Source of the DNA: Minisyncoccota bacterium
GTDB taxonomy: Bacteria; Patescibacteriota; Minisyncoccia; Phycocordibacterales; CSBR16-119
Direction: 5' to 3'
Assembly: GCA_041389065.1 (NCBI GenBank)
Contig: JAWKSM010000001.1
Span: 80,320 to 144,319, forward strand
Length of the DNA stretch: 64,000 bases
Below the pieces are notes generated by a model. It saw only the letters and a list, made by a program, of their open reading frames with translations, made no database searches and was not told where the DNA came from. The position numbers and the translations under genes are program-made. Positions 9,339-11,800 of this stretch are shown here, piece by piece; position 1 is the stretch's first letter; each line of letters starts with the position of its first letter.

Positions 9339-9350
9339 TTTTTCTAATGC

Positions 9351-9379
9351 TTGACAAATATATCTATTTGTGATATATT
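9351..9379 (+). promoter_or_regulatory. sigma70-type promoter (TTGACA-N17-TATATT) for the 9424 gene; shares the TTGACAAATATAT motif
   Basis: Perfect -35, 17-nt spacer, near-consensus -10; similar elements at 9891, 10155 and 10730. Confidence 0.5.
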
Positions 9380-9423
9380 ATAAATAAGAACCTGTTCCAA
9401 AACAACAACCAATACCGATAGCC

Positions 9424-9828
9424 ATGAGTAGCAGCAATCTTTCAAAAGGCCTTGCAGTCTTGTACAACCTTGGTGTCACCCCTGACAACAAGAAGGGGGC
9501 GCTAACCCAGAACGAGATCGATCAAGCAGAATTGATCTTCTGCCAAATGATCGACTATCGCCCGGTAAGCCTTCGGATCGGACTAAACGACCCGAATATC
9601 TCTCACAAGCTCTTACAGTTGTTCACCCACCAGAATGATCGGCGCGTGCAACAACTGACCATGGCACTTGGTAACGCCATTGGGAAAAAGCATCGCGCTG
9701 AAAAGACCGACTTCGTAATGGCGGTTCAAAACAAGGCGCGTGAGTTCCCTCACCTGAGCAACAAAACTGGTGTCCAAAAGATGATCTTTCATCTCATGGC
9801 ACGAAGCTGTGAGTCTGCTGCCGCATAA
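9424..9828 (+). CDS. hypothetical protein (GC-rich island gene 1)
   Basis: 134-aa ORF with its own promoter and a GGCCCGCCCCACCAGGGCGGGCC terminator; GC much higher than flanking DNA. Confidence 0.5.
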   Translation: MSSSNLSKGLAVLYNLGVTPDNKKGALTQNEIDQAELIFCQMIDYRPVSLRIGLNDPNISHKLLQLFTHQNDRRVQQLTMALGNAIGKKHRAEKTDFVMAVQNKAREFPHLSNKTGVQKMIFHLMARSCESAAA

Positions 9829-9938
9829 GGCACCAGACCTCACGAAGGCCCGCCCCACCAGGGCGGGCCTTTTCATTTTCTTTTTATTATTTGACAAATA
9901 TATTTTTATATGATACAGTTTATACAGAAACCTTGAAC

Positions 9939-10088
9939 ATGAATTACGAAGAAGTTACTGCGGGATACACTCGCGCAATAGAATCGTTTTTGGGAGAACA
10001 CCACGACGCCCTTTACATGGGAATCGGTGGTGGAATCCTGTTAACATTCTTTGTGGCGATGATCATCCGGGATAAGATCCGGAAGTAA
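9939..10088 (+). CDS. hypothetical 49-aa membrane peptide (GC-rich island gene 2)
   Basis: MNYEEV... with C-terminal TM GGGILLTFFVAMII; promoter-like TTGACAAATATAT at 9891; hairpin terminator about 10108-10140. Confidence 0.35.
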   Translation: MNYEEVTAGYTRAIESFLGEHHDALYMGIGGGILLTFFVAMIIRDKIRK

Positions 10089-10187
10089 CCTTCTGAACGA
10101 CTTGGACACAACGACCCTGCCATATCGGCGGGGTCTGTTGCTTTTTATATAAACTAGACAAATATTTTTATTTCAGTATTATTGTTG

Positions 10188-10652
10188 ATGGAAATAGTTC
10201 CACCAACAAAAACCAAACCAGTGATGAAGAGAGGATTCTTGGAATTTTCTTACTTCTACAGCATGAGGGCATACCAGCTGTGGAGTATCCTCAACATGAA
10301 CATGGGCCCAAAAAGGGACGAGGCCCTTAAAAAGCTCGTGAAGGTTCACCCACCCGAGAAATGGGGAATGAGAACTTTCCATGTCTTGAACAAATATCTC
10401 ACCTGTAAGAGGGTGGGCTTGTTCACCCACAAACTGGAAAAGGTCGTCGCCCTTTTGGGCGACCTGAGACTCAATGACTTCCACAACATCATCATTAAGG
10501 GCCGAGTTTTCGAAGCCAAGATGATGCCGTACAGGGAGTTCAACAAGGAAGGCAGTGCTGTCTTTGGACCGGTGGATAGGATACGCATCTTCGTAGACAA
10601 GCTCGAAGATATCTATGGAGAATTCCGACCAGTTCAAGCACAAGCTGCCTAG
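10188..10652 (+). CDS. hypothetical protein (GC-rich island gene 3)
   Basis: ATG at 10188 (the track ORF begins at a TTG at 10182); promoter-like TAGACAAATATTT upstream; GCGCCCGGACACAGTCCGGGCGC terminator downstream on the plus strand. The same-size antisense ORF is judged spurious. Confidence 0.5.
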   Translation: MEIVPPTKTKPVMKRGFLEFSYFYSMRAYQLWSILNMNMGPKRDEALKKLVKVHPPEKWGMRTFHVLNKYLTCKRVGLFTHKLEKVVALLGDLRLNDFHNIIIKGRVFEAKMMPYREFNKEGSAVFGPVDRIRIFVDKLEDIYGEFRPVQAQAA

Positions 10653-10802
10653 CACCACAACCTCACCTCAAAGCGCCCGGACACAGTCCGGGCGCTCTTT
10701 TTTTATATAGTTTAAATATTTTAAAATACTTGACAAATATATTTTTTTCATTAAATTGTTAGACAGATTGAACACTGAAGTTCGTCTACAAACAAATTAT
10801 CA

Positions 10803-11726
10803 ATGGGACAGACTTTGAATCCGGCTTTGAAGGTGGGGGTTTTCTATGACGGAAGCTACTACACCCACGTCAGCAACTACTACAACCATGTTCACGATCA
10901 TCGGCGTCGGATCCACATCGGTGGCCTTCACGACTACGTGAGGCACATGGTGGCAGAACGGGAAGGCACGAAGTCCAACCTCTGCCATATCATCGATGCG
11001 CATTTCTTCCGCGGCCGCTTCAGCGCACGTGAGGCCAATGAGAAACCCAACCAACTCTACCATGATCGGGTGTTCGATGATGTGCTGATGTACAACAACG
11101 TGCAGACCCATTACCTTCCCTTGAAGGATATGATGGGGAAAAAGAAAGAGAAAGGTATCGATGTGCTGATGGCACTTGAAACCTACGAGCTCTGCATGTT
11201 GAAGCGCTACGACGTCGTGGTGCTCATCGCTTCGGATGGCGACCATGTTCCGTTGGTGCGAAAGATCCACGCACTGGGTTGCAAGACCATGCTGCTCGGC
11301 TGGGACTTCGAGTTTGAAGATGCAAAGACGGGCGAAACACAGTACACTCGCACCAGCACCGACCTCTGGAACGAGGTGACATATGCGCTACCCATGCACG
11401 ACCTCATCGAGGAGGGACTGAAGGAAGAAGATGAGCTGATCCTCGACTGTTTCGTTTCGCGAGATGATCGCATGAACGACACGGAAGACCTATCAGAGGA
11501 TCTCGACCTCGAAGCGCGACACCAAAGCACGGTGATGAGCCTGAAGAACGGTTTCGGCTTCATCCATTTCCCAAACAACAACGTCTTCTTCTTGGGGGAT
11601 GACCTTCTCGATGTTGATTTCAGCTATCTGAAGGTAGGAGACATACTGGAGTTCAACGTGGAAGTGAACGCACGTGACCAGCAGGTCGCCAAGCAGATCA
11701 AGTTCATCAAACAGGCTGAGGATTAA
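10803..11726 (+). CDS. NYN/LabA-like nuclease domain fused to a C-terminal cold-shock (CSD) domain
   Basis: N-terminal VGVFYDGSYY...VVVLIASDGDHVPLV (NYN) and C-terminal MSLKNGFGFIHFPNNNVFF...DILEFNV (CspA-like). Confidence 0.6.
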   Translation: MGQTLNPALKVGVFYDGSYYTHVSNYYNHVHDHRRRIHIGGLHDYVRHMVAEREGTKSNLCHIIDAHFFRGRFSAREANEKPNQLYHDRVFDDVLMYNNVQTHYLPLKDMMGKKKEKGIDVLMALETYELCMLKRYDVVVLIASDGDHVPLVRKIHALGCKTMLLGWDFEFEDAKTGETQYTRTSTDLWNEVTYALPMHDLIEEGLKEEDELILDCFVSRDDRMNDTEDLSEDLDLEARHQSTVMSLKNGFGFIHFPNNNVFFLGDDLLDVDFSYLKVGDILEFNVEVNARDQQVAKQIKFIKQAED

Positions 11727-11760
11727 CCTCATGAACACATTACGCTCCTAGGAGTGTAAT

Positions 11761-11790
11761 GAAAGGGCCCCGCTTCGCGGGGCCCTTTCT
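11761..11790. terminator. bidirectional terminator between the NYN-CSD gene and cca
   Basis: GGGCCCCGCTTCGCGGGGCCC hairpin with flanking T/A runs. Confidence 0.65.
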
Positions 11791-11800
11791 TCTTTTTATA

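Follow-up and report, generated by a model that had tools for sequence, protein, structure and literature searches.

The question raised by the 2.4-kb stretch that separates dgkA from cca (positions 9340-11795) in the DNA analysed here, a 64,000-nt window on a 151-kb contig of a metagenome-assembled genome (MAG) of Paceibacterota within the Candidate Phyla Radiation (CPR), is whether its GC-rich genes arrived together as one horizontally acquired island, as a sequence-only reading had suggested, or have accumulated in some other manner. The stretch holds four plus-strand genes, namely orf1, orf2, orf3 and a gene encoding a NYN nuclease fused to a cold-shock domain (NYN-CSD), and is closed on the right by the convergent cca. 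Comparison with the same site in relatives leads us to read the gap, with a probability of about 0.7, as a long-lived replacement-type variable site made up of single-gene cassettes, where host-type regulatory frames persist, coding sequences turn over and an NYN-CSD gene has been imported. As judged from these alignments, the site is not one recently acquired foreign block, and the NYN-CSD coding sequence is its sole clearly foreign part.

The compositional contrast that first drew attention to the region is real. Its GC content is 0.475 vs 0.360 for the whole window (z = 2.57), a value reached by just 1.9% of 2,456-bp windows. Only the coding sequences account for the excess, with GC of 0.46-0.52 and GC at third codon positions (GC3) of 0.55-0.70, compared with a GC3 of about 0.17-0.35 in the neighbouring genes, and the promoter and 5' untranslated (5' UTR) stretches lying among them are AT-rich (GC 0.19-0.29).

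The site was recovered in relatives with orf1, orf3 and cca as probes, the last of these serving as synteny anchor (in what follows L-numbers denote relatives' loci and P-numbers protein records). The two closest loci, L010 and L013, with cca 97-99% identical to that of the window, show the same four slots in the same order. L003, L009, L024 and L103 (cca about 78-80%, that of L103 being cut short) carry an orf1-like gene, an NYN-CSD gene and an orf3-like gene; L104 has NYN-CSD and an orf3-like gene without orf1, and L105 and L106 have orf1-like and orf3-like genes without NYN. A single gene for a membrane peptide of about 48 residues is found in L014 and L017 (cca 73-76%, genome GC 0.44-0.45), as well as in L015, whose gap includes a masked run of N, and other combinations occur in L016, L018, L019 and L025 (cca 72-73%). 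Relatives thus bear one to four cassettes between dgkA and cca, every gene again with its own promoter and terminator, and in each lineage the gap is GC-richer than its surroundings. All relatives with cca at least about 72% identical have dgkA adjoining the variable site, and this adjacency is absent where cca identity is 62% or lower; a metagenome scan with cca returned mostly such distant relatives (cca at most 62%), L024 and L025 alone being informative. The synteny comparison called for by the sequence-only reading has therefore uncovered a gap that differs between relatives, with alleles apparently swapped. That reading would have been abandoned if related genomes had the genes in the same place with similar composition, and this is partly what we found, since L003, L009, L024 and L103-L106 hold such genes, GC-richer than their flanks. 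In L019 (7465-9854, reverse strand) the gap is filled by two tandem NYN-CSD-like genes of 359 and 289 residues with 27% mutual identity, the longer one having a proline-rich linker of about 80 residues. GenBank labels the MAGs of L013-L019 as Candidatus Saccharibacteria and the record of the window protein as Candidatus Paceibacterota; with cca 99% identical in L013, one of the labels must be wrong or generic.

The three closely related strains give the most detailed picture of this turnover. Their DNA is 92-99% identical over xth, dgkA, orf2, orf3, the NYN domain and cca, and the orf1 coding sequence (9424-9828, +), between flanks of about 93-95% identity, is unalignable among them (20-49% identity), with sharp edges: identity is lost at about 9426, after the start codon, and regained at about 9820, at GCCGCATAA, where the stop codon and the two Ala codons preceding it lie. 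The window allele of orf1 is 29% identical to that of L010 and 66% to that of L009, vs cca identities of 97% and 78% to the same loci, and the L013 allele matches no other.

Promoter and 5' UTR frames, on the other hand, are slot-specific and conserved across lineages. In slot 1, promoter P1 (9351-9379, +; TTGACA-17-TATATT with an extended TG, box score 11/12) and its 5' UTR are conserved down to the start codon in the window, L010 and L013, and across lineages in the form CTTGACAA..TGnTATATT; terminator T1 (9844-9872, +; 12-bp stem with 9 GC pairs, then a T-run) is also kept in L010 and L013. The second gene lies between P2 (9891-9919, +; TTGACA-17-TACAGT, extended TG, 10/12) and T2 (10113-10135, +; 9-bp stem, 7 GC pairs, T-run). 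In slot 3, P3 (10155-10182, +; TAGACA-16-TATTAT, 10/12) includes TAGACAAAAAT..TTTCAGTATTAT, conserved in six further lineages, and the whole frame TAGACAAAAAT..TTTCAGTATTAT..GAACCAGCTCTTTGAGCA..ACCAAACCAA..ATG precedes proteins as unlike as orf3 and a 172-residue protein of L024; T3 (10672-10696, +; 11-bp stem, 9 GC pairs, T-run) resembles the orf3 terminators of L003 and L009. P4 (10730-10757, +; TTGACA-16-TAAATT, 10/12) is like the promoters of the relatives' NYN slots (ATTGACAAA..), and T4 (11761-11789, +) is a perfect 13-bp stem (10 GC pairs) ahead of a T-run. All four genes are hence individually equipped with a promoter of the TTGACAAATAT type and a GC-hairpin terminator, as had been noticed from the sequence. 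The further suggestion that this arrangement sets the genes apart from their neighbours does not stand: promoters of the TTGACAAA type and GC-hairpin terminators occur throughout the window as a native style, and the TTGACAAATAT promoter was rejected as an island-specific feature on these grounds. The extended motif TTGACAAATATWT has four matches in the island and two elsewhere, that is six vs 1.19 expected per window, a count reached in 0 of 100 shuffles, and it is solely in the dense packing of promoters and terminators that the island is unusual. Between the NYN-CSD stop codon and T4 there is also a 24-nt near-perfect palindrome, CATTACGCTCCTAGGAGTGTAATG (11738-11761), kept in L010 and L013. 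In three GC-richer relatives (L014 7477-7877, L015 1882-2421, L017 7498-7867; reverse strand) a conserved motif ..AGTCATGGTGGAATGGG.. lies between the membrane-peptide gene and its terminator and may be a 3' UTR RNA element.

The NYN-CSD gene (10803-11726, +; 307 residues, GC3 0.70) has a different origin from its frame. Its nearest relatives are Flavobacteriales genes, 88-90% identical in amino acids, P0003 matching at 88% over 98% of the length. DNA identity to the P0003 gene is 82.5% over 880 bp and confined to 10823-11702, beginning 20 bp inside the coding sequence of the window and stopping 24 bp before its stop, with promoter and terminator unshared; in the one locus inspected, the P0003 gene is solitary in an ordinary chromosomal neighbourhood of a 62%-GC genome. 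In a neighbour-joining tree without bootstrap, in which Flavobacteriales were sampled by the best 120 matches, the proteins of the window, L010 (P0002) and L013 (P0005) are monophyletic, sister to P0003 plus P0004 and nested among Flavobacteriales sequences. GC3 descends from 0.86 in Flavobacteriales to 0.77 in L013, 0.72 in L010 and 0.70 in the window, towards a value of about 0.25 in host genes, and the changes accumulated since the split of the three strains, polarised on the Flavobacteriales sequence, are 37 GC->AT vs 6 AT->GC. Synonymous divergence (dS) is 0.22 for the NYN domain vs 0.25 for cca, and the gene has therefore been at this place, and evolving there, from a time before the strains separated. 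Tree, DNA match and polarised changes together show that the coding sequence of the window lineage came from Flavobacteriales, apparently in a single arrival before the three sampled strains split, and that it is being worn towards the AT content of its host. Horizontal acquisition thus holds for this coding sequence and fails for the island as one foreign block.

Other lineages retain resident NYN-CSD alleles with just 25-40% identity among themselves and with the Flavobacteriales type (56-58% in the case of L103) and that keep the domain order together with residues D16, E116, D120, D137 and D145. No resident copy is left in the window lineage, and the Flavobacteriales gene has probably displaced a divergent resident of the kind that relatives still have.

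Regarding the protein itself, the nuclease half of the proposed fusion is well supported by domain search: the NYN (PIN-like nuclease) domain occupies residues 10-168 (10830-11306, +) and matches PF01936 with 48.4 bits vs a cutoff of 24.2. An alignment of 129 sequences, the divergent Paceibacterota alleles among them, shows no variation at the five residues named above, the conserved acidic metal-binding positions of such domains. The NYN domain shows a ratio of non-synonymous to synonymous substitution rates (dN/dS) of 0.08 between strains, which points to a nuclease domain under purifying selection. The C-terminal cold-shock-like domain (residues ~243-300; 11529-11702, +) lies where the gene diverges far faster than elsewhere: the linker and this domain, together its last ~95 codons, have 58-89% nucleotide identity and dN/dS of 0.42-0.52 among strains; the Flavobacteriales C-terminus is retained in L013 and not in the window or L010. 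From this architecture we infer a PIN-like endoribonuclease that would be steered to single-stranded RNA by the cold-shock-like domain. The combination had been taken for an uncommon one, and proved otherwise: more than 1,100 homologues were found, widespread in Flavobacteriales/Bacteroidota, the best 119 of them 67-88% identical with the same length and domain order, and those of these 119 whose source is named come from Flavobacteriales/Bacteroidota genomes. The Joint Genome Institute (JGI) name for the architecture is uncharacterized LabA/DUF88 family protein/cold shock CspA family protein. Our literature search on the function of the family found no functional study and nothing directly relevant on bacterial NYN-CSD fusions, and an exact look-up of the window's protein sequence returned no record. 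A second, stand-alone NYN gene (4088-4675, -; 195 residues, Pfam 122 bits) with a host-like GC of 0.39 occupies the same place in L009; alongside the imported NYN-CSD, the genome therefore encodes an NYN nuclease of its own.

The remaining three genes were described from sequence as lacking any recognisable family, and no match was indeed obtained in Pfam, NCBIfam, PHROGs or PADLOC; an Rfam scan found only tRNAs and no family for orf1-3. The product of orf1 is a 134-residue all-helical protein ending in Ala-Ala-Ala, orf2 (9939-10088, +) encodes a 49-residue single-pass membrane peptide with one hydrophobic helix, and orf3 (10182/10188-10652, +) a helical protein of 154-156 residues ending in Ala-Ala. 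The AlphaFold2 (AF2) models are all-helical for orf1 (predicted local distance difference test, pLDDT, 77) and helical though weaker for orf3 (pLDDT 56), without a fold match in the PDB for either or in BFVD for orf1. Values of dN/dS are 0.21 for orf1 (window vs L009, with changes mostly at third codon positions) and, for orf3, 0.16 (vs L003) and 0.06 (vs L010/L013), and exact lengths are kept across lineages (134/134 residues in orf1, 154/154 in orf3); the ratios, the third-position changes and the lengths fit protein genes. A word-indexed homologue search gave two matches each for orf1 and orf3, an exhaustive profile search with orf3 gave 7 representatives among 1.84 billion proteins, and every orf3 homologue inspected sits at the dgkA-cca site. 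Selection pattern and distribution indicate that orf1 and orf3 are genuine protein genes whose homologues appear only at this locus in this lineage, and profile-profile comparison of the two families revealed no relationship (hhalign E 0.42). The orf2 peptide is 88-94% identical in L010 and L013 and 58% identical over 26 residues to a 47-residue peptide from the same site in L018; small transmembrane peptide genes are present at the gap in L014, L017, L015, L016, L018 and L025.

The -10 box of P3 ends at 10182, just 5 nt before ATG 10188, so that either the orf3 transcript is leaderless or the real start is ATG 10224, after the conserved ACCAAACCA 5' UTR; because of the alignment of the slot-3 5' UTR across lineages, the second start (142 residues) is probably the right one. 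Opposite orf3 and the NYN domain run two long antisense open reading frames (ORFs), 10179-10658 (-) of 159 residues and 10800-11270 (-) of 156 residues. GC3-rich coding makes stop codons scarce on the other strand and is their most likely origin; they could lead automatic gene callers to the wrong strand.

A feature shared by the non-NYN, non-peptide proteins of the site is a C-terminal Ala-Ala, present in 18 of 25 distinct ones vs none of 62 other ORFs in the window. The endings include SAAA, TLAA, SKAA, GKAA, AQAA, KVAA, NIAA, RLAA, AHAA, SLAA, ALAA and LELAA (..ESAAA in orf1, ..AQAA in orf3), they belong to at least four families without detectable sequence relationship, and they are written with differing codons and stop codons. 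Terminal Ala-Ala is the critical determinant of ssrA-like ClpXP degrons (PMC7142297, PMC10862746), and the native regulator sigma-AntA of Streptomyces is governed by a terminal Ala-Ala conserved in 67 of 71 orthologues (PMC7142297). Because of this role in known degrons, the tailed proteins of the site may be kept short-lived by a ClpXP-type protease.

Bringing these observations together, each cassette is framed by a native sigma-70-type promoter with its 5' UTR and by an intrinsic terminator, and the AT-rich frames are conserved slot by slot across lineages as the GC-rich coding sequences inside turn over; in the variable-site reading, swapping would proceed by homologous recombination in the conserved frames, used as homology arms between co-occurring strains. 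Usually the site contains an NYN-CSD protein, a membrane peptide of small size and one or two helical proteins, likewise small and almost always with an Ala-Ala end. Strong promoters combined with fast protein turnover would make the levels of the Ala-Ala proteins quickly adjustable, and the module might serve the control of RNA turnover or a conflict with phage or host.

Several observations weigh against this reading or parts of it. The allele pattern from which swapping is deduced could also represent a very old polymorphism. The GC3 of orf1 and orf3 is 0.60-0.72 in every lineage although dS is saturated between lineages; candidate causes are selection, a recombination hot spot with GC-biased gene conversion, or a supply of genes from relatives richer in GC, and the polarised changes of orf3 (10 GC->AT vs 5 AT->GC, a small sample) hint at decay rather than maintenance of GC. 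The order in the window, orf3 followed by NYN, departs from the orf1, NYN, orf3 of relatives; with the Flavobacteriales-type copy after and not before orf3, the probable displacement would have involved a rearrangement. The middle-slot NYN-CSD of L103, 56-58% identical to all Flavobacteriales matches, is fully AT-adapted (GC3 0.34) and could be either an older import or a deep branch, making more than one transfer or an older history possible. Genes for NYN, orf1-like and orf3-like proteins can each be found where the others are missing, which argues against an obligate complex. The second half of the fusion likewise falls below the Pfam gathering score in the window protein (PF00313, 14.9 vs 27 bits), with 17.8 bits for PADLOC CSD_V; homologues at 70-77% identity often carry a precomputed PF00313 match, and an RNP1-like motif, KNGFGFIHF (GFGFI), is present and aligns weakly to PDB cold-shock proteins (E 0.13-0.44); the resident L003, L009 and L104 alleles have this motif in degenerate form. 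Finally, no Clp genes were found among the 28 window proteins scanned and no tmRNA (transfer-messenger RNA) in any locus sequence examined.

Other explanations have to be measured against the same evidence. A single recent foreign island of 2.4 kb between housekeeping genes would agree with the genuine GC contrast, with three genes lacking a family and with the almost empty gap of L014, L015 and L017, but an outside donor is found for the NYN-CSD coding sequence alone, homologues of orf1 and orf3 are confined to this site in related Paceibacterota and were already there in lineages with cca at about 78%, the promoters and terminators are native-type and AT-rich, and neither flanking repeats nor a phage or plasmid match turned up; synteny in relatives largely refutes this view, which we consider very improbable. 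That Flavobacteriales reads were mis-joined into a Paceibacterota contig during assembly or binning is excluded, for practical purposes, by the occurrence of the same gene in the same frame in independent assemblies (the window, L010 SRR11577119, L011 SRR27197508 and L013 SRP329715). The MAG origin of the sequence and the closeness of the protein to Flavobacteriales genes would fit such an error, but the coding sequence is directly flanked by a promoter and a terminator of AT-rich host type, its GC3 is intermediate with lineage-specific AT-ward decay, and its DNA is just 82.5% identical to the nearest Flavobacteriales gene. There is hardly more room for orf1, orf2 and orf3 being GC-rich structured non-coding RNAs. 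Singly transcribed GC-rich units without protein families in an AT-rich genome would invite that thought, and a promoter and terminator of their own are typical of non-coding RNA genes in AT-rich genomes, but the constant ORF lengths, the third-position substitutions with dN/dS of 0.16-0.21 and the Ala-Ala ends preserved through different codons and stop codons all speak for proteins; this reading was rejected on the Rfam and dN/dS grounds.

It is more tempting to speculate on a toxin-antitoxin or abortive-infection-like module, in which the NYN-CSD toxin would be held in check by short-lived Ala-Ala proteins and freed upon infection or stress. A PIN-like RNase beside small fast-evolving proteins with degron-like tails, an orf1/NYN-CSD/orf3 trio in at least four lineages, the hypervariability between strains of both orf1 and the CSD part, and weak PADLOC matches (HEC-09, NYN, CSD_V) lend it some appeal. 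Those matches are nevertheless far too weak for membership (E 2e-4 to 5e-4), the genes are monocistronic rather than an autoregulated operon, and the co-transcribed pair with obligate co-occurrence that defines type II toxin-antitoxin systems is not seen; NYN-CSD is solitary in one inspected Flavobacteriales locus and widespread in that order, orf1 is missing from L104 and NYN from L105 and L106, and the two NYN genes of L019 stand without partners. We regard such a module as unlikely. In the same tentative vein, the site could belong to an undescribed, fast-diversifying CPR system in which the NYN-CSD RNase and unstable Ala-Ala helical proteins take part in conflict with phages or the host cell, and capture of the RNase gene would point to high-GC Flavobacteriales as the physical partner (host) of this Paceibacterota lineage; this too seems doubtful.

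As for the surroundings, dgkA (diacylglycerol kinase; 8934-9338, +; Pfam DAGK_prokar, 105 bits) and cca (tRNA nucleotidyltransferase; 11801-13279, -; Pfam PolyA_pol, PolyA_pol_RNAbd and HD) form the left and right boundaries, and profile searches confirmed both of them, as well as xth upstream of dgkA, as the housekeeping flanks they had been taken for. An automatic ORF call placed the dgkA start at TTG 8877, within xth (end 8920), and homologues point to the ATG 8934 start. Classical mobile islands are resembled in part, through deviant composition and patchy presence among relatives. The check for flanking repeats that had been advised came out negative, neither direct repeats nor att sites being present at the island, where the sole repeats are the promoter segments themselves. 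No island-linked integrase was found, the Xer-type recombinase at 5854-6825 being 2.5 kb off and kept beside rpsO in relatives; the nearest tRNA gene lies past cca, so there is no insertion at a tRNA gene, and the island shows no phage or plasmid DNA similarity. Elsewhere in the window, other GC-rich genes (29036-29539, 32784-34633, 35447-36477, 40056-41972 and 57477-58091; GC 0.42-0.53, GC3 0.43-0.61) include those of a PALP enzyme, a TACO1/YebC regulator, a family-less 638-residue protein and a cyclodipeptide synthase; none of them ends in Ala-Ala, and they may be further imports. A tRNA at 1254-1327 (-) received from ARAGORN a two-base anticodon call, 'ca', and is scored by Rfam as a normal tRNA (61.8 bits). 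A type IV pilus/type II secretion system (T2SS) ATPase (T2SSE, 379 bits) is encoded at 38278-39993 (-). Pilus-based attachment or DNA uptake has been reported for CPR bacteria, and a pilus of this kind is a possible route for gene exchange at the site.

If the variable-site reading is right, a genome pared to a minimum can still maintain a small spot of rapid gene turnover, where native promoter and terminator frames appear to act as landing pads from which incoming coding sequences, even those of another phylum, would be expressed at once. For most Paceibacterota neither the host nor the partners in gene flow are known, and the clean, recent and still-decaying import designates Flavobacteriales as a concrete candidate partner. 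That NYN-CSD could apparently replace a counterpart of about 30% identity suggests a conserved role for this family, which is large in Bacteroidota, and the Ala-Ala tail, recurring as it does in unrelated families of cassette proteins, hints that proteolysis sets their levels.

Our search of the literature on CPR hypervariable islands found nothing directly relevant, and the site is best placed by comparison with systems known from other settings. Replacement-type flexible genomic islands, in the classification of Rodriguez-Valera, hold highly divergent alleles at the same site in close strains, O-antigen and pilin loci being examples. The dgkA-cca site shares with them a fixed spot between core genes, near-identical flanks around unalignable inserted coding sequences, and allele lineages that cross species boundaries, as illustrated by the window orf1, nearer to L009 than to L010; it differs in that the exchange unit is a single coding sequence for a small cytosolic protein within a conserved frame, not a multi-gene surface cluster, and in its setting, the highly reduced genome of a CPR bacterium. 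Phage morons, as described by Hendrix and colleagues, are extra prophage genes with their own promoter, terminator and deviant GC, and here too each gene is an autonomous transcription unit of deviant composition. In contrast to morons, however, there is no prophage context, orf1-3 have no PHROG or phage DNA match and the neighbours are housekeeping genes, and the control elements belong to the host and predate the coding sequences that they frame. Integron cassette arrays are a more distant parallel, given that the present cassettes carry their own promoters and terminators and that attC-like imperfect inverted repeats and an adjacent integrase are absent. As in the sigma-AntA degron, a terminal Ala-Ala is kept (67/71 there, 18/25 here), several times as LAA, but at this locus the tail is common to several unrelated families of small proteins. 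The NYN-CSD protein is by full-length similarity and tree nesting a member of the LabA/DUF88-CspA family, set apart by its residence in another phylum, its Paceibacterota promoter, its AT-shifted codons and its fast-diverging CSD end. Taken together, these comparisons describe, for a CPR genome, a variable site of the replacement type whose single-gene units resemble morons and which bears one clear import from another phylum.

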